A stretch of DNA of 64,000 nucleotides. Source: Syntrophales bacterium (lineage in GTDB: Bacteria > Desulfobacterota > Syntrophia > Syntrophales > UBA2210). The stretch lies in assembly GCA_963666365.2 (NCBI GenBank), contig CAXXNF010000001.1:160001-224000 (forward strand), read 5' to 3'. Shown one piece after another: positions 14,665-59,322 of the stretch (position 1 is its first letter; each line of letters opens with the position of its first letter). The notes beneath the pieces were generated by a model. That model had not been told where the DNA came from. It searched no databases and was given only the letters and a program-made list of their open reading frames with translations. Made by a program: the position numbers and the translations under genes.

Positions 14665-14719
14665 CTTTTTGTTGATACCACATACCATTTGAAGAAAATA
14701 CCATTCGAGGAGGTTTAGT

Positions 14720-16502: not shown

Positions 16503-16553
16503 AGACAAACGGGCAGCTGTTCCTGTTTTACGCTGGTGCCCAAGGAGACAACC

Positions 16554-17366: not shown

Positions 17367-17446
17367 GGATGGATACAGGGAATGTCAATGGGCTCTGGAG
17401 ATCAGAGCCAGTCGAAAAGGATCATATGTTTGAGGGAGGGATTTTC

Positions 17447-17692
17447 ATGAGAAATTATATTATCGGGCTGTTAACCGGTATCGCTGCAGGGCTCATGTGT
17501 GGTGCCACTCCCCCGCCTGCCTGGTACCTGTCGCTGTTCTTTGTGGCGGGAAGTGGTCTGGTGGCCTTCGGGCTCGATGTCTTTTTCGGATCACGTGAGG
17601 AACATCAATCACGGGCCGCATGGATGGGGTTGACTCTGTTCGGCGTGCCCGGTTTTGTTTTTCTCTCGATTGTGTGGAGATTCGGGTTTTAG
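17447..17692 (+). CDS. rdhB: Small 3-TM protein, reductive dehalogenase membrane anchor-like
   Basis: 81 aa, hydrophobic; IIGL..G / WY...G..L..F / S.EE...AA.M....FG.P pattern recalled from Dehalococcoidia-type RdhB; immediately upstream of rdhA. Confidence 0.7.
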   Translation: MRNYIIGLLTGIAAGLMCGATPPPAWYLSLFFVAGSGLVAFGLDVFFGSREEHQSRAAWMGLTLFGVPGFVFLSIVWRFGF

Positions 17693-17841
17693 GTTTTTCT
17701 TGCCCCTTTTTCCGGGCTGGCGCAGCGTGAAGTTGCCAGCCCCGCGCACATGCCCGTATGCGGGTATTCAAAGTTTGCACTGTAAGGTGACCTGAAAACC
17801 GGGAATGTAGATTCAACAGATCACAAGCAGGAGATATTCAA

Positions 17842-19185
17842 ATGGAAAAAATGACAAGCGATGTGAATAACGGATTCAACGATCCGGCAACCATACCCCA
17901 CGGGTATGTCTATCGAAGTCAAAAGGGGCGCTATCCCTGGTGGGTTAATTCTGTGGATAAAATCACAACGCCGGTGGATGTTTCGACATGGGAGCGCAAG
18001 ACCACCGACATGATTCTGATGACGCAAGTGATGCAGGGCCCCTTGCGTGAGGAAGGTCTTACCAGGCTCGAAAAGGGGCGTGCCCGGATGCTTGAAAAAA
18101 TGCGGAGCAATGCACCGGGCTCAAGAATCCAGGATTTTGCATTGCATTACGCATCGGAAACCTATTTTGCAGCAGGGACCGATATGTTTACATTGAGTCT
18201 TATCATGAAGTTTCTGAAGATTAATGAGATTGTCGGTACGCTGATTCATCCGCCGGATGAGCTCGGCGTTCCCCGCTGGGAGGGATCGGAGAAGGAAGCT
18301 TCAGCGATGGTCGAGGCCGCGGGGATTCACCTGGGGGCATCACAGGTGGGCTTTACGGGTCTCAACCCCTGGTGTCTTGAAGCAAACGTTCACATCAGCA
18401 GTTCCGTTGAAAAGATCAAGACCACCGAAGATGGTCAGGTATTGGTGCCGGAGGATATGAAATACGTAATCGTCCTGGCCGCCCAGGTCCCTATGGAAGC
18501 CCAGTACAGGGCCCCAAGTCAGATCGGTGATGCCGCTGACAGAAGCGGGTATGAAAACCGCCAAATGGCGATGGAGAGAATGATCAATTTTATCCGCGGC
18601 CTGGGCTACAAGGCCAAACCGATACCGGGAATGATACCTCCGGTCATCCCCCTCGCACTTATGGCGGGCCTGGGGGAAATGGGTCGCATGAACCGCCTGA
18701 TTTCACCGCTATATGGGGGCGCTATCCGTCTGGAAGCGCTCGTGACGGACCTGCCTTTGGCTCTGGATAAACCCATAGATTTTGGGTTACAGGAGTTTTG
18801 CAGAGGATGTAAAAAGTGCGCCAGGGCCTGCCCGGCTAATGCTCTCAGCATGGATGATGACCCTTCCTGGGAACCAAAAGGCGTGTATTCCACTCCTGGC
18901 AAGAAGGTCTGGTATGATGACGGTGAGCGCTGTTCAAGCTACAGCGCCAGTACGCATATCTACTGCGGGGCCTGTCTGGGGGCCTGCCCATGGAATAAAG
19001 ACAACAAGACGGCTCTTCACTCGGTGTCCAGGGCAATGGGGGCAACAATGCCGTCTCTGTCCCCGTTTATGGTTTTCATGGATGATCTGTTCGGGTACGG
19101 TCTCGTCCCGGAACAGAGGATGAACGAATGGTGGGACCTGAAACTTCCGAACAAGGGATTCGACAGTAGCAGAACCCGGTCGTGA
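17842..19185 (+). CDS. rdhA: Reductive dehalogenase catalytic subunit-like protein, no Tat signal
   Basis: PWWV, LGVPRWEG, GASQVG, AGLGEMGR, TDLPL..DKPIDFG, FCRGCKKCARACP and C-x10-CGACLGACPW Fe-S motifs. Confidence 0.88.
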   Translation: MEKMTSDVNNGFNDPATIPHGYVYRSQKGRYPWWVNSVDKITTPVDVSTWERKTTDMILMTQVMQGPLREEGLTRLEKGRARMLEKMRSNAPGSRIQDFALHYASETYFAAGTDMFTLSLIMKFLKINEIVGTLIHPPDELGVPRWEGSEKEASAMVEAAGIHLGASQVGFTGLNPWCLEANVHISSSVEKIKTTEDGQVLVPEDMKYVIVLAAQVPMEAQYRAPSQIGDAADRSGYENRQMAMERMINFIRGLGYKAKPIPGMIPPVIPLALMAGLGEMGRMNRLISPLYGGAIRLEALVTDLPLALDKPIDFGLQEFCRGCKKCARACPANALSMDDDPSWEPKGVYSTPGKKVWYDDGERCSSYSASTHIYCGACLGACPWNKDNKTALHSVSRAMGATMPSLSPFMVFMDDLFGYGLVPEQRMNEWWDLKLPNKGFDSSRTRS

Positions 19186-34300: not shown

Positions 34301-37300
34301 TGCCGTCTGATTTCCGGCCTTCTTCGCCCCCGGCAGAAAGGCGCCGCGGCGGTTCATGGTCAGGCTGTCCTTGGCGATAACCGGCCCTTTGATCGGCGTC
34401 AGTGCAATCGCGTTTTCTCCTTCGAAAAGATAGGCATTGGTCCTCGGGTCGGCGGGATCGGGTACCGCCATGGAGGGGTCGAGCCGTTTTCGAAGGGGCT
34501 CGAATCCGGGCGCCGTCACCTCCAGAAACCACCCCACATCGCCCATTTCGAAAGGCCATTTGAAGGCGCCGTCGGCGCCGGTGGGATCGCCCCGCTCAGA
34601 GAACCGGCCGTAGCGGTTCCACAGACGGATTTCGGCGCCTTCGACGGGGTTTCCCGACGCGGCGCTTTTCACCGCACCCTTGAGAGCGATGCCCCTGATC
34701 ATGGTGATGATTATCTTGAATTTCAGCTTCCCGCTTGTCACGTCAAGGGTTTCCAGCCGATAGCCGTTGTAGCGCCAGTTTGTGTGTTCCGCGGTCAGAT
34801 CGTAAAATTCCAGCGGGGAGGTCAGATCAGTCACCCAGGCGCCGCCGGTGGTGGTGATCTTTGTACGGTCTTCCTCCCATTCTCCTTTATCGAACCAGGA
34901 TACCGCAATGTCGTCGATCGCTGAGCCGTCCACGGCATCCCTGGTCTCGACCAGAATGTCGTGGGAGATGGCGAGGGGATCCACGCCCGCTGTCGGAGTT
35001 GGTCCGCCGATGTTGATTCTCGCTTCAAGGTCGCCGCCGCTGCTGGTGAAATGGTACCAGTGTTCGTTGGTGTCTTCGAAATAATAATTTTCCACGTAGA
35101 GCCACATCTCGTAGGGGGTGTTCGGCGTTCCCGCGCGCCAGCGTTCGGTATAATAGAAGATACGGTCTCCCGTGTAGTCCGGGCGGATGAACTGGGGGAC
35201 CACTTCACCGTTCTTCACATAATCATAGTTGTCTTGATCGACCTGCTGCCAGGAGTAGATCTCGACCCTGGCCGTCCCGTAACTGGTGGCCTCCATGATC
35301 CCCTTCAGGTTCAGCACTCCCATGGGAAAAACTGAACTCCAGTAGTCGTAATTCTCCGGGAAGGGCGCCTCGGGGACAAGGCCGGGAGCGGGGAATTCGG
35401 CAAAGGTGAATTCATAGGGATAGGGCCCAGCATACTCCGCAGCCAGATGAGTATAGCGGGGGTGGTTGAGCGCCATAGTGTAGGCGCCCGCCGGAAGGCC
35501 CTCGATCACCCGCCGCGCCGTTCCCTTGCGGTTTTCCAGGGCCTCGCTCCGGTTGACCGGTCCGGTCAGGGTGACGGAACCGCCGTCGGCGATTTCCGCA
35601 TAGAGCGTCTCGTAGCGCACCTCCGGCATCATGACGCTCCCTTCCGACTCGGCCTTGCTGCGGTCCAGGGCCACCACCTGGTGTTCCGTCGGGCTTTTCC
35701 ACATCAGCGCCGGGTCCACCGCCGCTTCGACGGCGCATCTGTTTTTCAGGGCAAAGAGGGTGCCCGCCATGTGCTGCCCGGAGGAAAGGGCCATGCCGCC
35801 GATGCTGGTGATTCTCCCCATCATCTGGTATTTTTGAAAGGCCTGGGCGGATTTCAGGCTGTGGGGCCAGACCTGGTAATAGGGCCACATCGCGCTTATG
35901 TAGCTGCCGGACTTAATATCTTCTCCCACAAAACAGTCGCCCCAGTAATCGGTGAGACCCGGCGCCGTAATGCCATACATGCCGGGGATCAGCGAAAGGG
36001 TAAACTCGCCTATTTCGTTGGTCTTAACTTCGATCAGCCGATATTCTTCCGGTATAAACCGGGCGTAATACTCGGAGGCCCGGATTTCGAGCACCTTGTT
36101 GGCCCCGGGATAGTAGGCCGGCTGGGCGGCCCTGAAGAAATCGAAATCGTGGCTCGCCAGTTCATCGGCCAGGAGAAGCGTGGCGGTGAAGGTTACGGGT
36201 TCTGGGTCGCAGAACAGGGTCGTCTCTCGGTTCACATCGGCCACGGCGTCCAGATAGTCCGAAGCGGCAAGGGTGACGGAAAACCTGCTGTAGGCGTCTT
36301 CATTGCCGGCGTTGATGTCGCTGCCTTCGATCAGAATGGGCACGTGGCGCTCCACGGTATCATTGACCGTGGCGAGGTAGTTTCCCGGAAGAATCTTGTC
36401 GAAGACCGCCACGGCCCGGTTCTTGTCCGCCTCATAGGTGACGGTGCGGGTGCGGTCGATGCCTGCGGTGTTGCTGTCCTTCAGACCCTGCAGGCGCACT
36501 TCAAGGCCGCTAAGCATCTCGGGATCATGGTAGGGCGTGTCCACGACCACGGTAAGCGCCGTGTTCTGGAGGGTCATATCGATGCGCAGCGTCTCCTGCG
36601 GCAGGGCGGTCACCAGGTGTGTGCTCACGTTGTAGCCCAGACGCTTTCCCTGAACATTCCAGTGGACGGGAGGCAGACCGGTGAAGCGCACCTTGCCGGC
36701 CATTGTGTTGTCCCAGTAGGAGTCATTCTCCTTTCGGATGCCGCTTACACCGACCTGGGCGGGAACGAGGACGATATCCTGGTTGTCGGGATGAACGCCC
36801 TCACATTCGACGATGATGCCCTCAAGGGGCACGTTCTCCTCCTCGGTCACCGGGTTGAACCCATAGACCGAAGCGATAATGTGACTGGTGAGGGGCTTCA
36901 ACAGCACGTCGGCCCAGTGGGGACCGGTCAGCTCTTTGCTGACCTGCTCAGAATAGGATTCCCAGCCGGGGTTGCTGTCGGCCCCCTCGTTTATGAAGAA
37001 ACTGTAAAATCCCGGAGAAAGTCCGGCAAACTGGATGAAGCCCAGGCTGTCCGTCTTTCCTGACCTGTCGACGGCGGTCCCGCTGCCCGAGGGGACGCCC
37101 GTGATCCTGACCGGTATATTGGCAAGCTTCATTCCCGTCGTCACACAGGCGACTTCCACAAAGATGTCGAAAAAGGGCTCCTTGAGGGTCAGCTCCTTGT
37201 GCCACTGGTACCGCCCCCCGGCGGTGACGGAAAACTCCGCGTCGCTTGCCGGATGATAGCCGGGATGCTCCGCCTGGATCGTGTAGCTTCCCGGCTCGAT

Positions 37301-37546
37301 TCCGTCGATGGCGTACATGCCGAATCCGTCGGTTCTGGCGGTGTAGGAGCGTTCTGTTGTGTGTACCGTAACCCGGGCGGCATCTATGGGAAGCTTCGTC
37401 GCCTGGTCGGTGATCATGCCCCTCAGTTCGGCGGTATCCGAGGCCAAGGAGTCGGTCGGCGTCTGAAACGCCACGTGGGTAATAAACAGTAAGAAAACAA
37501 AGGACACGATGCGGAGGGTATTGAGTTTGTTACACTGGCTTTTCAT
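31385..37546 (-). CDS. Giant secreted protein with carboxypeptidase-regulatory-like (CarboxypepD_reg/Cna-B-like) domains and dockerin-like C-terminus
   Basis: Signal peptide; G.ITD..T..PI..A.V...TD..G.Y.I....PG.Y repeats; GDINGDGVVDLGD...ADITRNGAIDMGDAL tail. Confidence 0.82.
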   Translation of the reverse strand: MKSQCNKLNTLRIVSFVFLLFITHVAFQTPTDSLASDTAELRGMITDQATKLPIDAARVTVHTTERSYTARTDGFGMYAIDGIEPGSYTIQAEHPGYHPASDAEFSVTAGGRYQWHKELTLKEPFFDIFVEVACVTTGMKLANIPVRITGVPSGSGTAVDRSGKTDSLGFIQFAGLSPGFYSFFINEGADSNPGWESYSEQVSKELTGPHWADVLLKPLTSHIIASVYGFNPVTEEENVPLEGIIVECEGVHPDNQDIVLVPAQVGVSGIRKENDSYWDNTMAGKVRFTGLPPVHWNVQGKRLGYNVSTHLVTALPQETLRIDMTLQNTALTVVVDTPYHDPEMLSGLEVRLQGLKDSNTAGIDRTRTVTYEADKNRAVAVFDKILPGNYLATVNDTVERHVPILIEGSDINAGNEDAYSRFSVTLAASDYLDAVADVNRETTLFCDPEPVTFTATLLLADELASHDFDFFRAAQPAYYPGANKVLEIRASEYYARFIPEEYRLIEVKTNEIGEFTLSLIPGMYGITAPGLTDYWGDCFVGEDIKSGSYISAMWPYYQVWPHSLKSAQAFQKYQMMGRITSIGGMALSSGQHMAGTLFALKNRCAVEAAVDPALMWKSPTEHQVVALDRSKAESEGSVMMPEVRYETLYAEIADGGSVTLTGPVNRSEALENRKGTARRVIEGLPAGAYTMALNHPRYTHLAAEYAGPYPYEFTFAEFPAPGLVPEAPFPENYDYWSSVFPMGVLNLKGIMEATSYGTARVEIYSWQQVDQDNYDYVKNGEVVPQFIRPDYTGDRIFYYTERWRAGTPNTPYEMWLYVENYYFEDTNEHWYHFTSSGGDLEARINIGGPTPTAGVDPLAISHDILVETRDAVDGSAIDDIAVSWFDKGEWEEDRTKITTTGGAWVTDLTSPLEFYDLTAEHTNWRYNGYRLETLDVTSGKLKFKIIITMIRGIALKGAVKSAASGNPVEGAEIRLWNRYGRFSERGDPTGADGAFKWPFEMGDVGWFLEVTAPGFEPLRKRLDPSMAVPDPADPRTNAYLFEGENAIALTPIKGPVIAKDSLTMNRRGAFLPGAKKAGNQTAFTAFNAEGPLTMTWSLDVGLEQTTYTVTLPGFDNDDGSAGANRTVTLQDGIQEVWLVDMKAFPDNRYDDAPVALNLAETAEPREVAAFLNNIRSGAEGYRNVYYQRLTNFTADATDQNTVKATGQVKLWQLPPDLFKPAFIVVTKLGAVNVYNFEYTGAFEGKELTGARLPPWFAGMADIMGSVAGSQVMLGEGLQNALPKGKIIALPTFTANIILRATNALDYVYSIDTQVKEGMQSKIGGILGLSPGFMGLSLYGGVEATLKGEDREFYVQMKGGIAKNTVNKNEYTPGFLKKFGDVKVGLTPPPAGEFYHIDSYKFAPDNKPDELAVLYGMSGQAGVEVSASIFPVLKYIPKIGPVLLLLYKSGAMDVRALTKGLIGVRSLSGFKTVFPRQEEHYAIQGAETKQWRRHFLGGNEVGDPVKAQDPQKTESLDIAFGFGVGVDAMLARGSVGAKGTVELSGDDAWTGAPAMLIDVNPNGDSPIFRRIRGDLRAVLNVYLKTWIAQLQKKWHWKAWPIDYQFGTESAMYLIEMEIVTQRRDLGTFEPAEFQGQDPVVVDGFPPLGVFSTCSGNGDMLLYTDMTAEGNMALKASRRNESGAWGTPVQIAVVEGVITDTAVMARSDGTWLAAWTRIDKEQADNFYPPSRIMYATGNAEGNQWSTPAEAAALPDVAAHLKFMPHGTATALLYTRAADGATGGNQGIYGMLATDGAWSDPVELTSSEIFRFDALGSDDFTEKPSLIVYANESRELYALAWEEDLSAPSLLLEAAGSAFALCGDERRAYLGYSGDNAGIGLCKYEGETKEWSNLGLLFPEAVPRELSLAVIEDGDRDLSAVTWTQGDGTGIGLYFGTIDVSEGEILLLSRVTDKEGDFRAPLLQVCGSDGAVHVMSLCESAAGVNQLHDYPLTGLINYGDINGDGVVDLGDFICILHILAHEGTLETIGKIKADITRNGAIDMGDALSILRNLSTE

Positions 37547-40343: not shown

Positions 40344-41399
40344 TCATCGCCGCTGCTGGTAAATCGCCATGGTTGCAGTAAACAGATCCTTTTCCGGCAC
40401 GAATTCCCTGTCCTTGTCTTTCCTGAAGATCTTTACGGCTTCGGTGGGACAGGAAACGGCGCATACACCACAGCCGATGCAGCGGTCCAGGTTGATGCGG
40501 GCAACTTCGTCCATTTCGATCGCGTCCATGGGGCATCGTTCCAGGCAGAGTTCGCATCCGATGCACTCTTCTTCATTCACCCGGGCAAAGAAATTGCTGT
40601 TTACCATTTCTGAGGGCTTGTCGTATTTTTTATAGGCAACCAGGGGGCCGCAGCAGCAATCGCAGCACATGCACATGGCAACAGGGTCCTGGGAGGCGCT
40701 CAACTGGCAGACCAGACCAGCCTCCTGGCCTTCCTTCAGGATAGCCAGGGCCTCTTCCTGCGAGATGTACCGCCCCATGTCGTTTTCCACGAAGTAGTGA
40801 CAGCCGCTGCCGAAATGGAAACACACCTCCAGGGGCTTGCTGCAGGGGGTCCCCAACAGATCTTTCATTCTGCGACACATGCAATCGGATACTGCGATAT
40901 ACTTAGCCGATTTTATGGCCTCTTCCGCACTCTCGTAGGGCATGACCTGCGCGTCCGAATCGACGCTTTCCGCAATCGGAATCGTCCGGAGATCCCTCGT
41001 CGTTCCCTTCATCCAGGTAGCCTCGTACAGGATAGGAGTGAATTCCTCCATATCCCTGGCAAACTCCGGGGTCATGCGATTCATCTGAAACTCGACGATC
41101 CCCACAAGGAACGCCGTTGCCATGTATTTGTGGCTTCCTGCCTTTCCCGTACGAAACACCTGCCCCTTGTGAGACATCTCATAGAGCGCCTTTTCCATTT
41201 CTCCCGGGTCGGCGCCGATACGTCCGGCTATCTCCGCCGCCGTCTCCGGCTTTGGCAGCAGTTTCATAAATATTTCGGCTTCTTCGGGAGTGAAAATGTG
41301 CCTCAGGATTCTCAGTTCGATACCCGACTCCGTATTCAGCGGGAACCGCTGAGGAAACGTGTCGAGAAACTCGGCCAATCTTTGATAGACGTCCTTCAT
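40344..41399 (-). CDS. Cys-rich 4Fe-4S dicluster protein (close paralog of 9208-10272)
   Basis: MKDVYQRLAEFLDTFPQRFPLNTESGIEL, CMCR, CMCCDCCC and two ferredoxin motifs. Confidence 0.9.
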   Translation of the reverse strand: MKDVYQRLAEFLDTFPQRFPLNTESGIELRILRHIFTPEEAEIFMKLLPKPETAAEIAGRIGADPGEMEKALYEMSHKGQVFRTGKAGSHKYMATAFLVGIVEFQMNRMTPEFARDMEEFTPILYEATWMKGTTRDLRTIPIAESVDSDAQVMPYESAEEAIKSAKYIAVSDCMCRRMKDLLGTPCSKPLEVCFHFGSGCHYFVENDMGRYISQEEALAILKEGQEAGLVCQLSASQDPVAMCMCCDCCCGPLVAYKKYDKPSEMVNSNFFARVNEEECIGCELCLERCPMDAIEMDEVARINLDRCIGCGVCAVSCPTEAVKIFRKDKDREFVPEKDLFTATMAIYQQRR

Positions 41400-41417
41400 A
41401 TTCATTCTCCTCATAGA

Positions 41418-49207: not shown

Positions 49208-51268
49208 TCACGACTCCTCGACTTTTTCAATGCGGCACATAAAGTTTCGTCCCGACGCAGTGCCGATGACCGGATTGCGCCGATCGTCGTCGGTCATGAG
49301 ATTCAGACTGTAATCAGGCTTATAATCCCCCCACCCCCAGGCAATGCGAAGAACCCCACGGTGGATGACATTCGAAATCGCGGCCCTCATGCGCACCCGG
49401 CCGCGCGGCGTGGCAATCGTCACCCAATTCCCTTCACGGACGGCGTACTCTTGAGCGTCATCGGGATGGATGTCTACCACGCACCCTCGTTCCTGCTGCA
49501 AAAGGGACGGAATCATGCGGTACTGGGAATTGGTAAAACGCCTGTTGCGGGCGCCGCTGATCCCCAGGAGCGGATAGTGATCTGCCTGATCCATGAAGCT
49601 GACCGGTTCCTTTTCATGGCCGCGGGCGAAGGGAACCGGATCATGGCCATGGGCGCTCAACTGTACGGAAAAAAATTCAACCTTGCCGCTGGGCGTTCCG
49701 AATCCATTATCCTTGTACTTCTGATATTGTACCGGTTCGGCCATAATTCCCTCGGGATGTTCCCGCAGCATCGCCACGGTGATCCCCGCCGGTTCAAGCT
49801 GGTAATCGATCGCCTCTTCCGCAGTGCACCAGGGGAATTCTTTTTCCAGTCCGATACGCCGTGCCAGATCAAAGGTAATCTGCCAGTTCGGCCGACTGTC
49901 CCCTACCGGGGCAATCACCTGTTCCTGAATCCGCACAGGGCTTGAACGGACAAAGGCGCGGTTAAGCTGGGTGTGTTCAAAACAACTACCGGCGGGAAGA
50001 ATGACGTCTGCCATTTCTGCAGTTCCGTTCATGAACATATCGATCACCACGAGAAATTCCACCTTTTCCAGTGCCCGTCTTGCCCGGCCTGCATCCATGA
50101 AGGTGACCGCGGGATTTCCCGACTGGACAATCAGGGTTTTAATCGGGTAAGGTTTTTCTTCCAATATGGCGTCAATCACGCAGGACTGCACCTGATTTCC
50201 CCAGTTGCTGTGGAAACGATTGAAAAGATGGTACTCCGCGGTAACAGGCGCAACGGACGCGGGAAGTCGCTCCCGCAATTGCAGATTCCGGTTCGGAACG
50301 GTCTGCGGGATGAGATCGCCGCCCATGATGTCCAGATTGCCGGTGAGGGCGCGCAACATGGCCACCGCCCGTGTGGCGTCAAACGATTCAAGCTGCATAT
50401 CCAGGCCGTTGCCATCAACAATACAGGCCGGTTTGATCGACGTGTACACCCTGACGGCTTCTTTGACCAACGCCCGATCCAGCCACAACGTGTCTGCAAC
50501 TTTTTCAATCGGGTAGTGTGCTGCCGTCTTTTTCAATTCCTCGAAACCGACGGTCCACTGTTCCACGAACTCGTGATCAAATAAATCATGGGAAATAATT
50601 TCATTGATCATCGCCATGGCCAGCAGGCCGTCATGGGCTGGTCTGATCTGAAGCCAGATGTCGGCCATCTCTGCGAAATGCGTTTTCACCGGATCGACCA
50701 CAATCAGCGTTGCCCCGTTTTTCTTTGCCAGAAGGATGCTCTCAGCCGCATTGGGCGCCGTATCCCGGTCATTTTTCCCCCAGATCAGCATGCATTTGGC
50801 CTGCAGCGGCTGGGGTATCGTCATGGCGCCGTAGACGGCGGTGTGGGCAAAATCACGCCCCACGAAGCATATCGATCCATTTCCGATGCTGTTGGGAGAC
50901 CCGTAGGCATTCATCAGCCGGTTCACATAGTCCCAGGGCGCCCCCCAGTCCGCCGCCATGCCTCGCAACCAGCATACCGATTGCGCGCCATACTCTTTCT
51001 TGCAAAAAAGCATTTGCCGGGCGACGCGATCCATCGCTTCGTCCCAGGACGCCTCTCTGAAGCCGCCGTCACCCTGTTTGATCAAAGGCGAGACAAGCCT
51101 CTCGGAAGAATAAATGATGTCGGCCGCAGCGCTGAGCTTCGGGCAGAACAGTTGCTGATCTTCGGCAAGTGCCGATTTTCTTCTGGCCGAGATCCATCTT
51201 CCTTCTGCAGTCTCCACTTCTATGGGACAGCAGGCCGAACATAAACGGCAGACAGAGTGCGTTTGCAT
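49208..51268 (-). CDS. Mo/W-bis-PGD oxidoreductase, acetylene-hydratase-like clade, cytoplasmic
   Basis: CRLCSACC...FCPK 4Fe-4S site, SWDEA, SICF putative metal-ligand Cys, ALTGNLD, ADVILP, TPSGKVE, C-terminal HPDDA; no twin-arginine signal. Confidence 0.9.
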   Translation of the reverse strand: MQTHSVCRLCSACCPIEVETAEGRWISARRKSALAEDQQLFCPKLSAAADIIYSSERLVSPLIKQGDGGFREASWDEAMDRVARQMLFCKKEYGAQSVCWLRGMAADWGAPWDYVNRLMNAYGSPNSIGNGSICFVGRDFAHTAVYGAMTIPQPLQAKCMLIWGKNDRDTAPNAAESILLAKKNGATLIVVDPVKTHFAEMADIWLQIRPAHDGLLAMAMINEIISHDLFDHEFVEQWTVGFEELKKTAAHYPIEKVADTLWLDRALVKEAVRVYTSIKPACIVDGNGLDMQLESFDATRAVAMLRALTGNLDIMGGDLIPQTVPNRNLQLRERLPASVAPVTAEYHLFNRFHSNWGNQVQSCVIDAILEEKPYPIKTLIVQSGNPAVTFMDAGRARRALEKVEFLVVIDMFMNGTAEMADVILPAGSCFEHTQLNRAFVRSSPVRIQEQVIAPVGDSRPNWQITFDLARRIGLEKEFPWCTAEEAIDYQLEPAGITVAMLREHPEGIMAEPVQYQKYKDNGFGTPSGKVEFFSVQLSAHGHDPVPFARGHEKEPVSFMDQADHYPLLGISGARNRRFTNSQYRMIPSLLQQERGCVVDIHPDDAQEYAVREGNWVTIATPRGRVRMRAAISNVIHRGVLRIAWGWGDYKPDYSLNLMTDDDRRNPVIGTASGRNFMCRIEKVEES

Positions 51269-51295
51269 GGAAATAGTCCTCCCTTTGATATAGGT

Positions 51296-52237
51296 TCAGC
51301 GTGTGGCCTTTATATAACAGCTTCTGATGTGCTCATAGTGGTTGGCGTGGGTCCGTATGTGCCACCAGAGCTGCCCCTCTTTTTCAATGTTCCAGGGTGG
51401 TTGCAAAATGTCATTCTCCCCCGCCAGGAGTTTCATGATATGCGCTTGTCCCCGCAAGGTGTAGGGCCCTTCACTTTGTCCCCCCAGCCAGTTGTGTTCC
51501 GGCGCCGCCTCTTCGGACCAGGAAAAGGGATCGGAAAGCAGGAACTGCGCGTTCTCATCTCCGGTCACACGGTTCATCTCCTTTAGATGCATCAGAGGAT
51601 CGGGAACCTTATCCACCAGATTCAGCGAGGCAAAAGAAGATGCCATGTTCGCCCTGAAGGGCAGGGCCAGTGCGTCGGCAACAATAAATTCCGCCTTTTG
51701 ACTGTCCCAGTCTTCCGGTATTGCGAACTCGACAGTCCGGGTCAGCCATCCCTCTTCTTTCAGTGTGATGGTCCTGCGGCGATTCAGGAGAAGGTCTCTG
51801 GCCTCACGGATAAAGGCCCGCGCATTGTCCACCCCGATCACAAAGTCGCATTTACCCGTCATTTCAAAAGCAAACCGGCCGACGGCAGTCCCGACGTCAA
51901 TACAGATACCGGCATGGGGGCGCATCACCTCGCTCCAGCGCCGGTAGGCATCGGAACTGTTCTCCTCCTTCAGGAGATCTCCGTAGTGGCTCCAGAGATA
52001 GGACGACACCACGGCTGGGGTCTCATATTTGTTATGAAGGTATGCCTGCGAGGGGTGCAGTGCCGCATCGAGCAATGCGACGCCCTGTTCAATGCGATAT
52101 GCTCTGCCGCAGGCGGAACAGGTAAGGGCGCCCGTGAGAATATCGTCCCCCCGTTTCTCCTGAATCGCTTCTTTCAGCCGGTGTTCTTCCGGCAGGCACA
52201 CCGGACAGATCAGCAGCTCAAGCAACCGTTCCTTCAT
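51296..52237 (-). CDS. SAM-dependent methyltransferase, Trm112-like N-terminus plus OvoA-C-terminal-like domain
   Basis: LLICPVC...LTCSACGRAY.I..G Zn-ribbon; YETPAVVSSYLWSHYG, DVGTAVGRFAFE, EEG, NLVDKVPDP, DPFSWSEE, WLGG. Confidence 0.8.
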   Translation of the reverse strand: MKERLLELLICPVCLPEEHRLKEAIQEKRGDDILTGALTCSACGRAYRIEQGVALLDAALHPSQAYLHNKYETPAVVSSYLWSHYGDLLKEENSSDAYRRWSEVMRPHAGICIDVGTAVGRFAFEMTGKCDFVIGVDNARAFIREARDLLLNRRRTITLKEEGWLTRTVEFAIPEDWDSQKAEFIVADALALPFRANMASSFASLNLVDKVPDPLMHLKEMNRVTGDENAQFLLSDPFSWSEEAAPEHNWLGGQSEGPYTLRGQAHIMKLLAGENDILQPPWNIEKEGQLWWHIRTHANHYEHIRSCYIKATR

Positions 52238-52381
52238 CGTATCTCCTTATGTTAATGTATACAGTTATTACTTCGTTGGGCACGCGTATTGGTTTTGTAC
52301 CGCGAATCGCGACAACACATTGACAATAATAACGACTTTCGCCACATACCGGCGCGGCAAATACTGAACGATACATGTTGG

Positions 52382-52410
52382 AGTATATGGAGATGGAATA
52401 TCCCTGTCAA
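52382..52410 (-). promoter_or_regulatory. Sigma70 promoter for the methyltransferase/Mo-enzyme operon
   Basis: Minus strand TTGACA-17 bp-TATACT, about 145 nt upstream of the methyltransferase ATG. Confidence 0.8.
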
Positions 52411-52819: not shown

Positions 52820-53974
52820 TTAAAACTCGAAGGCCAGTCTTGCAAACACCTCGTCCGCGGTATCCTGTGCGGCGCTGCCGGCTGCCTTTTCATAATTGCT
52901 CCTGCGATATTCGATCATGAGCGTGGTTGCGAAATCGCCCTTTTCAAAGAGCCTGTAATTGGCGCCGAGAGAGGATCTGTTCTCCAGATGACCGTCCTGA
53001 TCGCCGTCAATATCGTCATCGAAGGCCTCATAGCGGACGGCTATTTCCAATGGATCCGTTACTTGAAAGGCAAGTGCGGCAAACCATGCGGATTCCTTAT
53101 ATTCTCTCCCATCCGTCGTGTGCAGTTCCCGTGCAACCGCAGCGATATATTCGGCATCGAAGGTAACCATTCCAGCCTGATACGCTATTGATCCACCCAC
53201 TGTGGTATTGCGATCCTGCTGTCCCGGTTCCGAATCGAAATACACGCTGAGAGACAGTCCTTCCAGGGGCGCCATAGACAGATTAAGGACATAGGAATTG
53301 ACGTCATCGGTCGGATCTGGGTTCGGATCGGGATCCCTCGTCCATCCATAGGCTGCCGCGGAAACCTTGTCCGCCAGCACCTCTCCCTTGTATATCGTGG
53401 CCGATACATCAAGCCCCCCTACAGCGTGGGTCAGGCCGATTGTCGCCCCGGTTTTGACGATTTCATAGCAGTCCTGGGTAATGGGATCATTGATGAAGTG
53501 GCTGTTGAACACCCCAAAAGGCTGCGTCCGCTTACCTCCGACGAAATACAGGGGGAATCTCTCCTTTTGTATGGTTATCATGGTTTCGTCCCAGAATACC
53601 CGATCGTCTTGGTCGAGGTTTTCTCCCTTGAGGGTTACATTGCCCGTTACCCACTCATTAAATTTCACTTCCAGGCCCAGTTCGGCTGTTCCGATATCGA
53701 ACTCCGAAGAGGAATCGCTGTCTGCATCGTTCAGATTCCTCGGATCCGTATAACTGAAATCCAGCTCAAGGGCGCCGGATATGCTGATTTTATCCAGCCA
53801 GGCTGCCGCCAAACCGGCGGAGGCGCCCTTTTCGATCTTCTGTTCTATTTCCATCACCTTTTGCGCAAGGGCATCGTTCGACATGGCGCCAATGGCCGGC
53901 GGGACAACCGCCAGCGCTACGGAACACACCACGCACACCACAGTTAACAATTTAATATTACGAATTTTCTTCAT
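52820..53974 (-). CDS. LbtU-like outer membrane porin
   Basis: Signal peptide, coiled coil, ISGALELD, PFG.F.SHFI.DP.T, alternating beta strands, C-terminal LAFEF. Confidence 0.78.
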   Translation of the reverse strand: MKKIRNIKLLTVVCVVCSVALAVVPPAIGAMSNDALAQKVMEIEQKIEKGASAGLAAAWLDKISISGALELDFSYTDPRNLNDADSDSSSEFDIGTAELGLEVKFNEWVTGNVTLKGENLDQDDRVFWDETMITIQKERFPLYFVGGKRTQPFGVFNSHFINDPITQDCYEIVKTGATIGLTHAVGGLDVSATIYKGEVLADKVSAAAYGWTRDPDPNPDPTDDVNSYVLNLSMAPLEGLSLSVYFDSEPGQQDRNTTVGGSIAYQAGMVTFDAEYIAAVARELHTTDGREYKESAWFAALAFQVTDPLEIAVRYEAFDDDIDGDQDGHLENRSSLGANYRLFEKGDFATTLMIEYRRSNYEKAAGSAAQDTADEVFARLAFEF

Positions 53975-54077
53975 GTACTTTATCCTCCATTGCATAATCA
54001 TCAATAAAACAAACTCTTGTTCCCGTTGCATGTATCACCGCATAGCGCTCGGTGATGCATTTCATCGGATATTTCAT

Positions 54078-54163
54078 AAAAAAAAGACGCCATGTTCTCT
54101 GTATGATTACAGTTATCCATGCGTCTTCACTTGTTCCGCCCTCTGTCGGACCCGTAAGTTCGC
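54078..54163 (-). promoter_or_regulatory. Leader terminator/antiterminator, copy 2 (upstream of the porin gene)
   Basis: GCGAACTTACGG...AAGTGAAGACGCATG...CATGGCGTCTTTTTTTT. Confidence 0.65.
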
Positions 54164-54199
54164 TTTTTTATAAAATTACCTTGATATATCCATTTCGCC

Positions 54200-54997
54200 C
54201 TACTTCATATCTCTGGCCTGCACCCAAATCACCGCATCCTGCGACAATTCCTTGCCTTTATAGTCTTTGTCCGGTCCGACTCCGAGGGCGCAAAATCCCC
54301 ACCAGCCGGCCCTGGGAATACCGAAAGAGAATTCACCGTTCACATTGGCCTTTATGGTCATGGTCACAAAGGCGTCCTGAGGCGCTTCCACTTCCGCTCG
54401 GGCGGAAAAAGCGTTCTTGTCCGGTTGCGGTTGGTGATTCATGTACTCCACCTCGATTTCCGCATAGGGAATGGGTTTGCCGTCGCTCAGGACGATTCCC
54501 CGGAACACGTTGCCGGTCCAGAGTGCATAGGGTTTGTCAAGCGGAACTATTTCCGCAGGAAGGCCGATCTTTGCATCCCAATCCGTGGGAAACCCACCGG
54601 TATTGACAACCATTTTGCTAATCTGCTGAATATAGCAATTCTCTTCCTTCTCCAAATACGGCGCCGGCACCAGACAGAATACATTGTCTCCCATGCCGCG
54701 CAGCTTGTACGTCGTCTCATAGGCCGCACCGCTGTTGGTAAGGCTGGTCCAGGAAATCGGCTTGACCGTTCGGAGCAAATCTTCTTTCTTTCCCTTGCGC
54801 ACTACAAAAAACTGTTCCGGCGCACCCATGTCCATAGTATGCCCCGCTTCGAAAGGGTGAGTGAAGACAAGTTTAAGGTCAATGGCCTCTGCCTTTCCCA
54901 ATGCCGATTCTGGCGTGTAAATCATCTGGAAATGGGCAAATGCCGGACCGGTCATACACATCATCATTCCAACCAACATAATAATTGCTTTTTTCAT
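54200..54997 (-). CDS. DUF4198 periplasmic metal-uptake protein
   Basis: Signal peptide ending AFA-H, FTHPFE, EIVPL.KPY, AEIEVEY, GWWGF.AL. Confidence 0.82.
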   Translation of the reverse strand: MKKAIIMLVGMMMCMTGPAFAHFQMIYTPESALGKAEAIDLKLVFTHPFEAGHTMDMGAPEQFFVVRKGKKEDLLRTVKPISWTSLTNSGAAYETTYKLRGMGDNVFCLVPAPYLEKEENCYIQQISKMVVNTGGFPTDWDAKIGLPAEIVPLDKPYALWTGNVFRGIVLSDGKPIPYAEIEVEYMNHQPQPDKNAFSARAEVEAPQDAFVTMTIKANVNGEFSFGIPRAGWWGFCALGVGPDKDYKGKELSQDAVIWVQARDMK

Positions 54998-55033
54998 AGA
55001 CACTTCTCCTTATTCTTTGTTTGATTTGGCAAT

Positions 55034-55357
55034 TTATTCAGCAATATCGTTCCCTTCTATCTCCACGACATGCCCCGGACCGGCGTCAAAATAAATCTTA
55101 TAGGGAACGGAAGGCTTCTCGAAGGTAAATTCACTGTTTTTATCCATTTTCCCATTGTTCAGCACCTTCCCCTGAACATCTTCCACACGCATCTGTACTC
55201 CCGAGGCCGAAGAGCCGTCCGAGAACCCGCCCTCGCACGTGACTGTTCCATCTCCGTTGTCGTAACAGGAGCAGAGCGGCGTATGGGCAATCACCCGGCC
55301 GGGCATTATGAATGCCAACGCCAGAATCCCCATAATTACTATTTTTTTTCTACACAT
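55034..55357 (-). CDS. Small exported protein of the feo operon
   Basis: Signal peptide then HTPLCSCYDNGDG..CEGGFSDGS, FDAGPGH. Confidence 0.75.
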   Translation of the reverse strand: MCRKKIVIMGILALAFIMPGRVIAHTPLCSCYDNGDGTVTCEGGFSDGSSASGVQMRVEDVQGKVLNNGKMDKNSEFTFEKPSVPYKIYFDAGPGHVVEIEGNDIAE

Positions 55358-55375
55358 CTTCTTTCCTCCTCTCTC

Positions 55376-57844
55376 TTATTCATGTTCGGATTTGTTTTTC
55401 AAAAAACCGGTTGCAATCGTCAGCGCCAAAGCTACGCCAAAAAAAGCGCCCATGGCCTGAAGCCCGGAAAGACCGAGCGCGCTCCCTCCTGAAAAGATCA
55501 GGCTTGCCGTCGCCAATCCCAGCGCCATGGGATAGACGATGGAAAAGAGCATCCATTTAATGGAACCGGACTGCAGTTTTACGGCGATGGCCGTGGCGAT
55601 GCAGGGCGGATAGAGCACCATGAACAGCATCAGCGCCAGGGCGTGCAGGGACGTAAAGCCCGCTTCACCCCTGGCCATGCGCTGCTCCAGGGCTTCCCCC
55701 TCTTCTTCCGCTTCATACAGCGCCCCAAGGGTGGCCACGCTGCTCTCCTTGGCGGCAAGCGCGCTCAGAAGGGCTACATTTACGCGCCAATTAAAACCGG
55801 CCGCCTGCGTGACCGGTTCCAGCCATTTCCCCAATTTTCCCAAAAAACTGGTATCGATGCGTTCCTGTCGCATGTGGCGTAGAAGATCCCTTCGCTCATT
55901 AAAGAGAGTTTTGAAGGCACGATTGACCTTCCCAGCAGCCTTGTCCGTTCCCGGCTGCACAATGCGGAAAAACACCGGATCACGCGATTCAAAGCGGGCA
56001 TTGAGCGCGGCAACCGCTGAACTGTCCGATTTCCTCATTTTGGCATTCTTGTAGTCATTCCAGTAGAGCACGAGATCCATTATCCGTTCGCCCTGCAGGT
56101 CTTTCTCATAGGATGTACCGTTCACCTTACTGAGAAACACGCCCAAGGCCTTGTCCTTTTCCGCGTGGTAATAGGCCATCCTCTCCTGTCCGATGCCGGG
56201 GAACTGCAGCAACACGAACAGGACCACCGCAACGGCCGCCACAACCGTCGTAATCTTTCTCAGAAACAGCCAGACCCGTTCCAGGGCGCGTCCCAGAACA
56301 CCGCGAACCGAGGGAAGGTGATATGATGGCATCTCCATGACAAAGGGCGCTGTTTCTTTCTTTCTCAAAACGGTCAACGTCAAAATTTTTGCGGTAGGAA
56401 GCACCAGAAGCAGGCTGATGGTGCTTATGAAGAACATGGCCAATCCTTTGTGCGCCGCAAAATAGATATTTATCAAAAGGACATACAGGGGCACCTTGGC
56501 CAGGCAGTTAAGCATCGGAATAATTAAAATGGTGGCAAGCCGCGACCGTTCGTCGGGAATGCCCTTACAGGACATCACACCCGGTACCGCGCAGCCGCCC
56601 ACGTAAATGCCTCCCAGCACCATGGGCAGTGTTGACTGACCATGGAGCCCATAGCGGCTGAACAGTCGATCCATGATAAAGGCCATCCGAGGCATGTAAC
56701 CGCTGTCCTCCAGTATGGCGATAAGACCGAAGAGAATGAAAAAAATGGGAATATAGTTCAGCAGGGCGTTAATGCTGTCGACACACCAGAGCGTAAAAGA
56801 CCGGATCAGCGGTATTTCTATGAACCCGGGATTCGGAGTAACGGCTTCGGCCACACTTCTCAGTGTGGCAAGAAGCGGCCACGTGTAATTGGTGACATTA
56901 TAGCCCTGCACAATGGAAAGATAATACAGCAGCCAGATGACCGTCAGAAGGATAAGCGGTCCGAGGAATTTGTGGCAGACAAAGCGGTCTATGAAATCGG
57001 TCGCTCTGCCCCTGCTGTTCGTTTCGTTCGTAACACAGGATGCAGATATTTCATCGGCCCTTTGATAGCGACGATGGGCAATATGCAGTTCAGGCATCTC
57101 GCCGTGTTCATGTTCGAAATCTTTTCGCAGTTTCTCGACGAATTCAAAGAATGCTGCGGATTGGGCATGGGCATCCTCTATCAGGCGCTTCGCCTCGCCA
57201 TCGCCCTCCATGAGTTTAATGGCCAGCCATCTCAGAGGATAGTGCACCGCCAGAGTGGTTTCAGACGCAAGCCGTTCACTGATGTCGCGCAGAAAAGGCT
57301 CCATATCGCCGTAATCAATGCGAACCGCCTTCGCAGGTTCTACCCCATCCAAGGCAGCATCAATGGCTTTGAGCAAATTCTGCTTCCCGGAACCGTTTTT
57401 CATGGACGTGGGAACGACAGGAACTCCTATCGTCTTCGAAAGCTTTACAACATCTATTTCGGCGCCGCTCCGTTTCGCCACGTCCATCATGTTCAGATTC
57501 AATATAACGGAAATGTCCATTTCCAGTAGCTGAAAAGTAAAGTACAGACTGCGCTTCAGATTCGACGCATCTACGACATTGATGGCAACTGCCGGGTTCT
57601 CATGAAGAATGAAATCTCGCGTGACTCGTTCTTCTGGAGAATAAAAAGTAAGGCTGTACGCACCGGGAAGATCAACCACTTCCACCCTGACACCGTTATA
57701 TCGATACCATCCGACCATCTTGTCCACGGTTACGCCGGGATAATTGGCCACGTGCTGGCTCGCACCGGTAAGTGCATTAAACACGGTGGACTTGCCGCAA
57801 TTAGGCTGTCCGGCAAGAGAGATCAGGTACTTTTGGCCTTTCAT
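55376..57844 (-). CDS. feoB: Ferrous iron transporter B
   Basis: GQPNCGKS, NYPGVTV, DLPG, NMMD G-motifs; EDSGYMPR gate; LYPPC. Confidence 0.96.
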   Translation of the reverse strand: MKGQKYLISLAGQPNCGKSTVFNALTGASQHVANYPGVTVDKMVGWYRYNGVRVEVVDLPGAYSLTFYSPEERVTRDFILHENPAVAINVVDASNLKRSLYFTFQLLEMDISVILNLNMMDVAKRSGAEIDVVKLSKTIGVPVVPTSMKNGSGKQNLLKAIDAALDGVEPAKAVRIDYGDMEPFLRDISERLASETTLAVHYPLRWLAIKLMEGDGEAKRLIEDAHAQSAAFFEFVEKLRKDFEHEHGEMPELHIAHRRYQRADEISASCVTNETNSRGRATDFIDRFVCHKFLGPLILLTVIWLLYYLSIVQGYNVTNYTWPLLATLRSVAEAVTPNPGFIEIPLIRSFTLWCVDSINALLNYIPIFFILFGLIAILEDSGYMPRMAFIMDRLFSRYGLHGQSTLPMVLGGIYVGGCAVPGVMSCKGIPDERSRLATILIIPMLNCLAKVPLYVLLINIYFAAHKGLAMFFISTISLLLVLPTAKILTLTVLRKKETAPFVMEMPSYHLPSVRGVLGRALERVWLFLRKITTVVAAVAVVLFVLLQFPGIGQERMAYYHAEKDKALGVFLSKVNGTSYEKDLQGERIMDLVLYWNDYKNAKMRKSDSSAVAALNARFESRDPVFFRIVQPGTDKAAGKVNRAFKTLFNERRDLLRHMRQERIDTSFLGKLGKWLEPVTQAAGFNWRVNVALLSALAAKESSVATLGALYEAEEEGEALEQRMARGEAGFTSLHALALMLFMVLYPPCIATAIAVKLQSGSIKWMLFSIVYPMALGLATASLIFSGGSALGLSGLQAMGAFFGVALALTIATGFLKNKSEHE

Positions 57845-58065
57845 GGCAGTTCCACCTCGACAAATCGAGCCTCTTCGTGACGGAGACTGATGCAGTAGCC
57901 GTCCAGTGCAACTTCCATGGGATCGTCAAGAGGGGCGTTTCGAATTACCCTCATCCTCAAACCGGGATACACCCCCATATCGAGCAGTCTCTGCCCCAGT
58001 GTATCGACTGTTTTCAATTTTTTAATACGACACTCGCCACCCGGTTTAATCTGATCCAGCGTCAT
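57841..58065 (-). CDS. feoA: Ferrous iron transport protein A
   Basis: RLLDMG, APLDDP, SLRHEEA; 4-nt overlap with feoB. Confidence 0.95.
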   Translation of the reverse strand: MTLDQIKPGGECRIKKLKTVDTLGQRLLDMGVYPGLRMRVIRNAPLDDPMEVALDGYCISLRHEEARFVEVELP

Positions 58066-58084
58066 GTTTCATTCTCCTCAGTTC

Positions 58085-58177
58085 AAAAACAAAAAGGCGC
58101 AACCTGATGCGCTTCGCACGCTTCAAGTTGCGCCTTCGCTTCCATCGCGCCGATAAAGGCCGACGGCCGCAAGCCGC
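58085..58177 (-). promoter_or_regulatory. Leader terminator/antiterminator, copy 1 (upstream of feoA)
   Basis: GCGGCTTGCGG...AAGCGAAGGCGCAAC...GTTGCGCCTTTTTGTTTTT ending about 20 nt before the feoA start. Confidence 0.7.
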
Positions 58178-58331
58178 ACCACATAATGTTCGATTACTAT
58201 ACCTTAAAAATAATTGCCTAATGTACGTACTATTCTTACATCGTCACGCATTTTTAAATGCCCTTGATTCATCTTCATACCCTCATTGATCTTCAACATA
58301 TGATTTGCCCCTTCCGTTTCTGCTCGCGCAT

Positions 58332-58685
58332 TCACAAAAAATTCCTCTGGGACTGTGACACAGGCGATTCGATCAACACCTGCGTCAGTTTTTTACGCAA
58401 AATTTCAAGCTGCCTTGATTTGAAGGCCTTTCTACTCTGCTCCAATACTTCTATGGCTTCTTTAAGCGCATTTTCCAACTTGAGTTCTCTCGTTCGTGCA
58501 TGACACATCCATTCAAGTGCGTGCAGAGAGTGGTCATCGCCCTGTTCTTTCAGAAAAGAAGCTACAAGAATGCAATGTGCAGTTATACCGCGTTGAAGCT
58601 CTTTCATGCTTGCGCTGAGCGCATTAAGTAGAGTTGTATCTGAGATCTGCATAAACTTATATTTACCTTCCAATGTTATATTCAT
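58332..58685 (-). CDS. Hypothetical helical protein (start may be the second Met, MQISD)
   Basis: Open frame between dtxR and feoA; amphipathic C-terminus EAIEVLEQSRKAFKSRQLEILRKKL. Confidence 0.6.
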   Translation of the reverse strand: MNITLEGKYKFMQISDTTLLNALSASMKELQRGITAHCILVASFLKEQGDDHSLHALEWMCHARTRELKLENALKEAIEVLEQSRKAFKSRQLEILRKKLTQVLIESPVSQSQRNFL

Positions 58686-58764
58686 CTAACAATACTGACA
58701 AAAAAAACCAGCGGGACATTTCTTTTCAAAAAACGGATGGCACTTCAGATTCCTTCTCACATAC

Positions 58765-59322
58765 TCACCCCTCATTATCTTCATTGTCACCCAAATCAAT
58801 CTGGCTTCTAAATTCACAGGAAAACGCTGCGCCGTTCTTTCGACATTTGTCAGGATCGCAGCCCTGCTGCCGGTATTCCTCGAAATAGCGAAGCCAGCTC
58901 TCGCCGGTTCGTGGGCATATCTGAACAAATTCCATAAAGTCCGTCAACGTTGCCAGCGTTGAGGCACTGAGTATATGCTCCATTTTGCAGGCCTCTTCGT
59001 CGGCAACGGTGCCTTCGATTCGCAATATTTCAGTCAAAAACCTGCGCAATGCTTCGTGCCTGCGGCGCATCTCCTTTCCGACGGCGGCTCCGCTTTTCGT
59101 CAGCTCTACATATTCATATCGTTCGTAATGGATCAATCCATTATTTTTCAATGTTTTCAACATGCTGGACACGGTGGGCATCTTGACGTTCATCCGCTTG
59201 GCGATATCTTTGACGCGCACCACCCTTTTTTCCTTATCGAGATCGAAAATGGTTTCCAGATAGTCTTCCATGACCGACGTCAAAGGTTTCTCATCCTCTT
59301 TTTTTTCATTATGGAGTATCAC
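58765..59322 (-). CDS. DtxR/MntR family metal-dependent repressor
   Basis: LTSVMEDYLETI, VRVKDIA, PTVSSML, RRHEAL, EACKMEH. Confidence 0.93.
   Translation of the reverse strand: MILHNEKKEDEKPLTSVMEDYLETIFDLDKEKRVVRVKDIAKRMNVKMPTVSSMLKTLKNNGLIHYERYEYVELTKSGAAVGKEMRRRHEALRRFLTEILRIEGTVADEEACKMEHILSASTLATLTDFMEFVQICPRTGESWLRYFEEYRQQGCDPDKCRKNGAAFSCEFRSQIDLGDNEDNEG

Follow-up and report, generated by a model that had tools for sequence, protein, structure and literature searches.

A conserved gene pair of an OvoM-like methyltransferase and an acetylene-hydratase-like Mo/W enzyme in a Syntrophales bacterium, candidate for oxygen-independent synthesis of methylated thiohistidines

A stretch of 64,000 nucleotides from a Syntrophales bacterium (assembly GCA_963666365.2, contig CAXXNF010000001.1, positions 160,001 to 224,000) was analysed and is referred to below as the window. 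It carries a two-gene unit on its minus strand, in which an open reading frame (ORF) of 313 amino acids encoding a methyltransferase (P0001) is followed by an ORF of 686 amino acids encoding a Mo/W enzyme (P0002). An initial annotation had described the two genes as an operon with a 27-bp gap and had proposed an oxygen-free thiohistidine pathway; both ORFs and the gap were confirmed. We establish here the gene structure, the family relations and the conservation of the pair, and discuss which chemistry it may perform. The features of the locus are the following.

52382..52410, minus strand: sigma70-type promoter-like site, TTGACA-17 nt-TATACT, matching the consensus at 11 of 12 positions (consensus match alone)
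52238..52381, minus strand: leader, about 140 nt long, containing a terminator-like hairpin (52361-52338) and, ahead of the P0001 ATG, an AAGGAG ribosome-binding site (from the sequence)
51296..52237, minus strand: methyltransferase gene P0001, 313 amino acids, with a Trm112-like Zn ribbon and a class I S-adenosylmethionine (SAM) methyltransferase domain like that of OvoA-C, OvoM and OvsM
52082..52234, minus strand: Trm112-like Zn ribbon, residues 2-52 (CPVC ... CSAC; Pfam PF03966)
51299..52027, minus strand: methyltransferase domain, residues 71-313, with the motifs YET, SSYLWSHYG, DxGxAVGRxxFE, EG, NLxDKxP, SDPFSWS and WLGG (TIGR04345, alignments to OvsM and OvoA, invariant columns)
51269..51295, minus strand: intergenic gap of 27 nt, with GGGAGG 8 nt before the P0002 ATG
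49208..51268, minus strand: gene P0002, 686 amino acids, a cytoplasmic, acetylene-hydratase-like Mo/W-bis-pyranopterin-guanine-dinucleotide (bisPGD) enzyme
51143..51250, minus strand: N-terminal [4Fe-4S] motif C7, C10, C14 and C42, with Ser11 at the position of Asp13 of acetylene hydratase (alignment to 2e7z)
50867..50869, minus strand: Cys134, predicted metal ligand (alignment to 2e7z and 2vpw)

The translation of P0001 contains all methyltransferase motifs listed in the initial annotation as well as the Zn ribbon, which Pfam assigns to Trm112p (PF03966) with 38.6 bits, above the cut-off of 22. The NCBIfam model NF038101 (Trm112_arch) gave 46.5 bits, under its cut-off of 77. The ribbon cysteines C11, C14, C40 and C43 are invariant among 22 aligned sequences. 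For the catalytic part, to which Pfam also assigns Methyltransf_11, the top NCBIfam model was TIGR04345 ovoA_Cterm, the model of the 4-mercaptohistidine N1-methyltransferase domain of OvoA; its match (80.2 bits, E 1.6e-22) covers residues 71-303 and model positions 1-232 of 242. The runner-up methyltransferase model reached 13.7 bits, so that P0001 clearly prefers the OvoA C-terminal model over generic ones, as had been anticipated. A search of the own genome with the ovoA_Cterm profile returned P0001 with 80.8 bits, and the second-best match was a partial one of 23.5 bits. By sequence, the solved relatives of P0001 are OvsM (3e-16), OvoA (5.7e-12) and OvoM (3e-11), with no other specific ones. 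The same relatives were found by fold: the first 10 Foldseek matches of the AlphaFold 2 (AF2) model (mean predicted local distance difference test, pLDDT, 88.8) are all OvoA, OvsM or OvoM chains (E 5e-21 to 2e-18), and the stand-alone OvsM and OvoM chains have target-normalised TM-scores (TMt) of 0.79-0.84. Generic methyltransferases start at 1e-10, about eight orders of magnitude behind. P0001 is specifically OvoA-C/OvoM/OvsM-like, yet it lies within a large separate family of its own, comprising more than 1200 clusters of about 313 amino acids, none of which bears a functional name.

P0002 consists of the Pfam domains Molybdopterin, Molydop_binding and Molybdop_Fe4S4; a desulfurase domain is absent. 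It is thus the stand-alone enzyme of the initial annotation, with no cysteine desulfurase fused to it. Since its Fe-S motif begins at residue 7, there is no room for a Tat signal, and the neighbouring genes in the window include no Fe-S subunit, membrane subunit or desulfurase. C7, C10, S11, C14 and C42 are invariant in an alignment of 26 sequences. Cys134, likewise invariant in these sequences and followed by F or H, aligns with the Cys of the 2e7z stretch 'YMCIGN' (Cys141 by our own count) and with the Cys of 2vpw in that stretch. The best solved relative by sequence is acetylene hydratase (1.6e-81), followed by PsrA/PhsA (9e-59). Acetylene hydratase is also the best Foldseek match of the AF2 model (pLDDT 89.3), with 1.3e-56 and a query-normalised TM-score (TMq) of 0.88, and the next match is at 2.3e-45. 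The NCBIfam models for Fdh-alpha (TIGR01591) and PhsA scored 270.8 and 270 bits against cut-offs of 666 and 694. Judged by its sequence, P0002 is acetylene-hydratase-like but not acetylene hydratase itself, because the defining Asp13, which adjoins the second cluster cysteine, is replaced by Ser11, here and in all 26 aligned relatives. According to PMC12096430, Asp13 is essential and specific to the acetylene hydratase subfamily, and the Ala mutant is inactive. The family is large (809 Mo-enzyme clusters at E<=1e-100), and the 120 best relatives of P0002 comprise 581-731 amino acids with Mo domains only and not a single fusion.

Two observations on this family are added. Selenocysteine was considered for three Mo orthologues flagged with '1 TGA' and was rejected, the codon being an ordinary stop in G133 and G190, and G128 having no in-frame stop. 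A single metagenome sequence of 550 amino acids (P0273) combines Trm112, methyltransferase, Fe4S4 and Molybdopterin Pfam domains and may represent either a natural fusion of both genes or a gene-call artefact.

In order to analyze the conservation of the pair, one genome per species was scanned. The methyltransferase was found in 232 genomes, mostly of Thermodesulfobacteriota, with some Nitrospinaceae, Thiotrichales and Desulfuromonas, and 80 loci were kept for a neighbourhood tally. In 70 of the 77 assessable loci the methyltransferase gene is immediately followed by an orthologous Mo gene of the same orientation, in agreement with the conserved pairing that had been predicted. The tally comprises 63 full-length P0002 orthologues (52-76% identity), 4 cut by a contig end, 3 fragmented, 7 loci with none and 3 that were not assessable. 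The median gap between the two genes in related loci is 37 nt. After clustering of all neighbouring ORFs, no third conserved gene (desulfurase, carrier or transporter) was found near the pair. Five genomes without an adjacent Mo gene were inspected; one has an orthologue elsewhere and four have only paralogues of 34-35% identity. The pairwise identities of P0001 and P0002 orthologues correlate with r 0.87, a value matched by none of 999 permutations. This is expected for co-inherited genes, and shared ancestry would yield the same. Cultured carriers of the pair include Desulfobulbus rhabdoformis DSM 8777, D. elongatus DSM 2908, Desulfogranum japonicum DSM 18378, D. marinum DSM 2058, Syntrophus buswellii DM-2 and Desulfuromonas sp. 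CSMB_57.

The distribution was further examined in 401 genomes of the phylum. The methyltransferase family is present in 38 of them, the own genome counted, and is absent from all 13 sampled genomes of the own order or family, hence its distribution is patchy. P0002 orthologues, searched for by scoring two candidates per genome, occur in 14 genomes and adjoin the methyltransferase in all 14. The remaining 24 methyltransferase loci, inspected separately, hold a different Mo enzyme (6), an M19 dipeptidase (6), ALAD (2), an inositol monophosphatase (2) or nothing in common (8). In the own genome (94% complete), the best match to the OvoA N-domain (TIGR04344) scored 36 bits against a cut-off of 400, and EgtD was not found. 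With neither an OvoA N-domain over the cut-off nor an EgtD, no alternative source of the substrate is apparent in this genome, and this lack accords with a thiohistidine function of the pair.

OvoA itself was found in 9 of the 401 genomes, 4 of which also carry the methyltransferase family. Three of the four OvoA-bearing genomes of family f33 (G071, G171 and G314; methyltransferase loci L133, L130 and L131, OvoA in L145 and L146) combine a lone methyltransferase with a full-length bifunctional OvoA. These lone enzymes may further methylate thiohistidines. In this co-occurrence one may see a hint that the lone members are likewise connected with thiohistidines; three of the four genomes, however, belong to one family. 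A second group of loci has a Peptidase_M19 gene (renal-dipeptidase-type) directly after the methyltransferase, in three lineages and at six loci (L123:1207-2178, L124:3618-4589, L125:1062-2072, L127:2228-3238, L134:3416-4384 and L135:3370-4323). Four of these six genomes come from one genus, of which three possess EgtD and two of the three a full-length MES, the metallopterin-dependent ergothioneine synthase. EgtD and the methyltransferase family occur together in only 3 of the 401 genomes.

MES provides a link between the two families. EgtD was found in 36 of the 401 genomes, and 15 kb were fetched around ten of these genes; six of the ten regions hold a Mo enzyme 28-30% identical to P0002. 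In the four such loci that were examined, a Mo ORF of 1131-1148 amino acids lies directly beside EgtD. This is the MES arrangement of Beliaeva and Seebeck (PMC9516567), whose supplementary table lists Desulfobacterota. That paper describes the Mo module of MES as an acetylene-hydratase-like bisPGD enzyme, the same class as P0002, and reports that MES required its desulfurase for product formation. With the desulfurase inactivated, the Mo module swapped sulfur between ergothioneine and trimethylhistidine (same source).

The six phylum loci with a different Mo enzyme revealed a second two-gene cassette, in which the gene of a P0001-family methyltransferase (35-43% identity to P0001) directly precedes that of a Mo enzyme of 735-741 amino acids.

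L136:2050-5226, second cassette
L137:2091-5272, second cassette
L138:2101-5284, second cassette
L139:2023-5198, second cassette
L140:479-3654, second cassette
L141:2234-5077, second cassette

Their Mo enzymes share 48-51% identity with the Mo module of the EgtD-adjacent MES homologues. In L136-L141 neither a desulfurase domain in the Mo enzyme nor a desulfurase gene nearby was found, and no third conserved gene stands beside the cassette.

Phylogenies were calculated for both proteins. The midpoint-rooted Mo-enzyme tree of 146 sequences covered P0002 itself, 10 of its orthologues, 4 MES modules and, out of the 150 best representatives, 131; the other 19, whose lengths fell outside 640-830 amino acids, were left out and acetylene hydratase itself was not included. 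The sister of the P0002 clade in this tree is P0123, with 46% identity. The methyltransferase tree of 54 sequences included five true OvoA C-domains, on which it was rooted, and left out a fragment of 206 amino acids. In this tree the clade paired with MES-like enzymes is basal, followed by a grade of lone and M19-linked members, and the members paired with P0002-type enzymes form a crown clade. Lone members nested within the crown clade point to secondary loss of the Mo gene. Two distinct acetylene-hydratase-like lineages, one of them MES-like, have thus become partners of a single methyltransferase family.

The conserved C-terminal Cys307 of the P0001 family was considered as a persulfide shuttle like Cys1135 of MES. 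We rejected this idea because the MES-like-paired clade and several lone members have Gln, Arg, Leu, His or Glu at this position instead.

The function best supported by these data is the formation of a methylated thio(seleno)imidazole without O2: a lineage closely related to MES, the only Mo enzyme known to sulfurise a histidine ring, has been joined to the methyltransferase family, and the only specific relatives of that family methylate thio- or selenohistidine. That the pair itself performs O2-independent synthesis of N-methylated thio- or selenohistidine is, in our judgement, a proposition with about even chances. The two genes would then be a self-contained cassette whose product is an N-methylated amino acid with a thio- or selenoimidazole ring, similar in type to thiohistidine or ovothiol. 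The Mo/W-bisPGD enzyme, with a Cys134-ligated metal and one [4Fe-4S] cluster, would accept sulfur(0) or selenium from a donor in trans, for which persulfide, polysulfide or a housekeeping desulfurase are candidates. A metal-sulfido species would be formed and attacked by the imidazole of histidine to yield the C-S bond, as proposed for MES. The methyltransferase would transfer a methyl group from SAM to one of the ring nitrogens of this product, as OvoA-C, OvoM and OvsM do, and the order of sulfurisation and methylation could be reversed. Substrate, product, sulfur source and metal of the cassette are in this scheme what we infer, and ovothiol is one possible product among several (C5 or C2; S or Se).

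A number of observations weigh against this function. A sulfur-delivery domain is neither fused to P0002 nor conserved nearby. The proposed oxygen-free pathway gains from the MES-like Mo enzymes paired with a sister methyltransferase clade, but many members of the family have no Mo partner: 18 of the 38 family-bearing phylum genomes lack an adjacent Mo gene, and in genome-wide searches these 18 hold no P0002 orthologue anywhere and a full-length MES in only two. The Mo gene is also absent downstream of the methyltransferase in 7 of the 77 assessable loci, and it is broken beside an intact methyltransferase in L028:1320-1875, L038:7100-8611 and L032:6955-8998. L028 is from Thiotrichales, and its 'Candidatus Kentrum' relatives retain intact methyltransferases. 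As to OvoA, the expectation that the pair resides in anaerobes without ovoA holds for 13 of the 14 pair-bearing genomes but not for G165, which also has a full OvoA; the OvoA N-domain (TIGR04344) is above the cut-off in 4 of the 37 other family-bearing genomes. The kinship of P0002 with acetylene hydratase and MES, claimed in the initial annotation, stands insofar as acetylene hydratase is the closest solved relative. It is weakened by the Ser in place of Asp13, by an identity to MES of only 28-30% and by the Mo-enzyme tree, in which the P0002 and MES clades, each with support 1.0, fall in different major branches. The nearest relatives of P0002 are uncharacterised paralogues of 33-46% identity. 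Likewise, the OvoA C-terminal type of P0001 is borne out by the top specific model and the fold relatives, but with 80 bits the protein stays far under the 170 bits that the curated ovoA_Cterm model demands, and a long branch parts the family from the true OvoA C-domains, so that the substrate of P0001 may differ.

The last points lead to the alternative that the pair modifies another small molecule. The Mo/W enzyme could hydrate, hydroxylate, reduce or sulfurise some other heterocycle or chalcogen compound, and the methyltransferase could N-, S- or Se-methylate the product, which would be a non-histidine cofactor, signal or detoxification product. The sub-threshold score and the long separate branch of P0001 would suit such a role. 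So would the position of P0002 in a large cloud of uncharacterised acetylene-hydratase-like paralogues (30-46% identity, many per genome), and the family members that adjoin M19 dipeptidases or stand alone. Set against this, P0001 retains all OvoA-C-specific motifs beyond the SAM site, and its sole specific structural relatives are thio/selenohistidine N-methyltransferases. Moreover, the sister clade is paired with MES-like enzymes, and the only chemistry known for MES is the sulfurisation of a histidine derivative (PMC9516567). We consider this alternative unlikely, yet worth keeping in mind.

Much less probable is a role in salvage or breakdown, in which the Mo enzyme would strip or swap the sulfur of thio-imidazoles taken up by the cell, and imported thiohistidines would be substrates of the methyltransferase. 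The sulfur exchange by the desulfurase-inactivated Mo module of MES (PMC9516567) offers a precedent, P0002 has no desulfurase, and lone methyltransferases occur in three of the four OvoA-bearing genomes of family f33. Such a pathway would sit poorly with the rest: no transporter is conserved beside the pair, a SAM-consuming methylation is unexpected in breakdown, and in its tight operon layout, with the methyltransferase gene leading, the pair is reminiscent of the biosynthetic MES-EgtD pairs. That the genes are merely neighbours, namely an ordinary formate, polysulfide or thiosulfate reductase or dehydrogenase beside a Trm112-type methyltransferase of RNA or protein, is very improbable: database entries of orthologues do bear the names 'formate dehydrogenase', 'thiosulfate/polysulfide reductase chain A' and 'Trm112 family protein', and Fdh-alpha (271 bits) and PhsA (270 bits) are the top NCBIfam Mo matches, but these scores are far under the cut-offs of 666 and 694, a Tat signal and a PsrB/C- or Fdh-type partner are absent, the adjacency (70 of 77 assessable loci) is kept in distant lineages whose surroundings are otherwise variable, and the fold of P0001 is OvoM-like, unlike an RNA methyltransferase.

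Returning to the synthesis of methylated thiohistidines, a wider picture can be drawn, which we offer tentatively and with somewhat less than even confidence. Strict anaerobes (sulfate reducers, syntrophs and some Nitrospinaceae) might possess an oxygen-free metallopterin route to ovothiol-like N-methyl-thio(seleno)histidines, and this route would have arisen twice. The OvoM-like family would have acquired a MES-like Mo enzyme as its first partner and, at a later stage, one of an unrelated acetylene-hydratase-like lineage, to which the enzyme of this window belongs, and the stand-alone Mo enzymes would draw sulfur(0) or selenium from the persulfide/polysulfide pool.

To our knowledge, all known ovothiol and ovoselenol routes need O2, using sulfoxide or selenoxide synthases, and the anaerobic routes that we know of, EanB and MES, lead only to ergothioneine. 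In the literature searched (subscription papers not covered) we found neither a Mo-dependent ovothiol or thiohistidine pathway nor a description of the second cassette. In the MES paper (PMC9516567), ovothiol appears in the reference list only. If the proposed function is true, C-S bond-forming Mo/W chemistry would be extended past its single example, redox-active methylated thiohistidines would be made in sulfidic, anoxic habitats, and two large unnamed families (more than 1200 methyltransferase and 809 Mo-enzyme clusters) would gain a function. The hypothesis is directly testable, as the pair occurs in cultured strains and comprises just two genes.

Upstream of P0001, the near-consensus sigma70 promoter named in the initial annotation is borne out as a promoter-like site with 11 of 12 matches; the scan by itself is weak evidence, with 2 sites of this type seen in the scanned region against 2.8 expected in shuffles. 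A riboswitch or attenuator in the leader was considered and rejected: there was no Rfam match at E<=1, the leader folds no better than shuffled sequences (z 0.76), and it is unconserved across 4 related loci. The leader thus probably holds no riboswitch.

Downstream, the pair faces a convergent FIST/PAS histidine-kinase unit. Upstream, positions 52820-59322 (minus strand) encode a 403-amino-acid ORF without Pfam match, DUF4198, a 107-amino-acid ORF, FeoB and an iron-dependent repressor of the DtxR type. The region has the look of one for metal uptake, and it is not kept beside the pair in other genomes. Elsewhere in the window, a paralogue cluster (7522-19185) contains three proteins of 368-393 amino acids with a C-terminal 2x[4Fe-4S] domain, a fourth being encoded at 40344-41414. 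The cluster also includes three tandem DUF169 genes (14720-17366), a nitroreductase, two alpha/beta hydrolases and a reductive-dehalogenase-like gene (17842-19185). Two very large proteins are encoded on the minus strand, one of 1509 amino acids with Sortilin/BNR repeats (26619-31148) and one of 2053 amino acids with CarboxypepD_reg and a C-terminal dockerin (31385-37546).

Compared with known systems, P0002 shares with PsrA/PhsA (2vpw) the Cys ligand, and the chemistry of PsrA/PhsA handles sulfur(0) at the metal. Unlike these enzymes it has no Tat signal and no PsrB/PsrC genes, and it scores 270 bits against the cut-off of 694. P0002 resembles acetylene hydratase of Pelobacter acetylenicus (2e7z), a cytoplasmic monomer that binds one 4Fe-4S cluster and a metal ligated by Cys; the two differ at Asp13 versus Ser11, the role of Asp13 being that given in PMC12096430. 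MES of Caldithrix abyssi, as described in PMC9516567, is likewise a bisPGD enzyme of the acetylene-hydratase-like type, located in the cytoplasm, with a Cys as metal ligand and a 4Fe-4S cluster at the N-terminus. Both MES and P0002 are encoded in strict anaerobes beside a SAM methyltransferase of histidine chemistry, in the case of P0002 presumably so. P0002 differs from MES in having no fused C-terminal pyridoxal-phosphate-dependent cysteine desulfurase with relay cysteines and in its partner, which is OvoM-like rather than EgtD. The L136-L141 Mo enzymes stand closer to MES (48-51%) than P0002 does and are also without desulfurase. The 5-thio-/5-selenohistidine N-pi-methyltransferases OvoA-C, OvoM and OvsM (PDB 8khq, 9bxl-n, 9bxh-k) have the class I SAM fold in common with P0001, at 17-23% identity in structural alignments, and share its N-terminal (YET, YL..HYG) and C-terminal (P..W.E..P...WLGG) elements. 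P0001 differs by an additional Trm112-like Zn ribbon at its N-terminus and by a beta-hairpin (WWKIRTHxNHxE) that is conserved at its C-terminus, and its partner is a Mo enzyme, whereas OvoA-C, OvoM and OvsM work with a non-haem-iron sulfoxide or selenoxide synthase.

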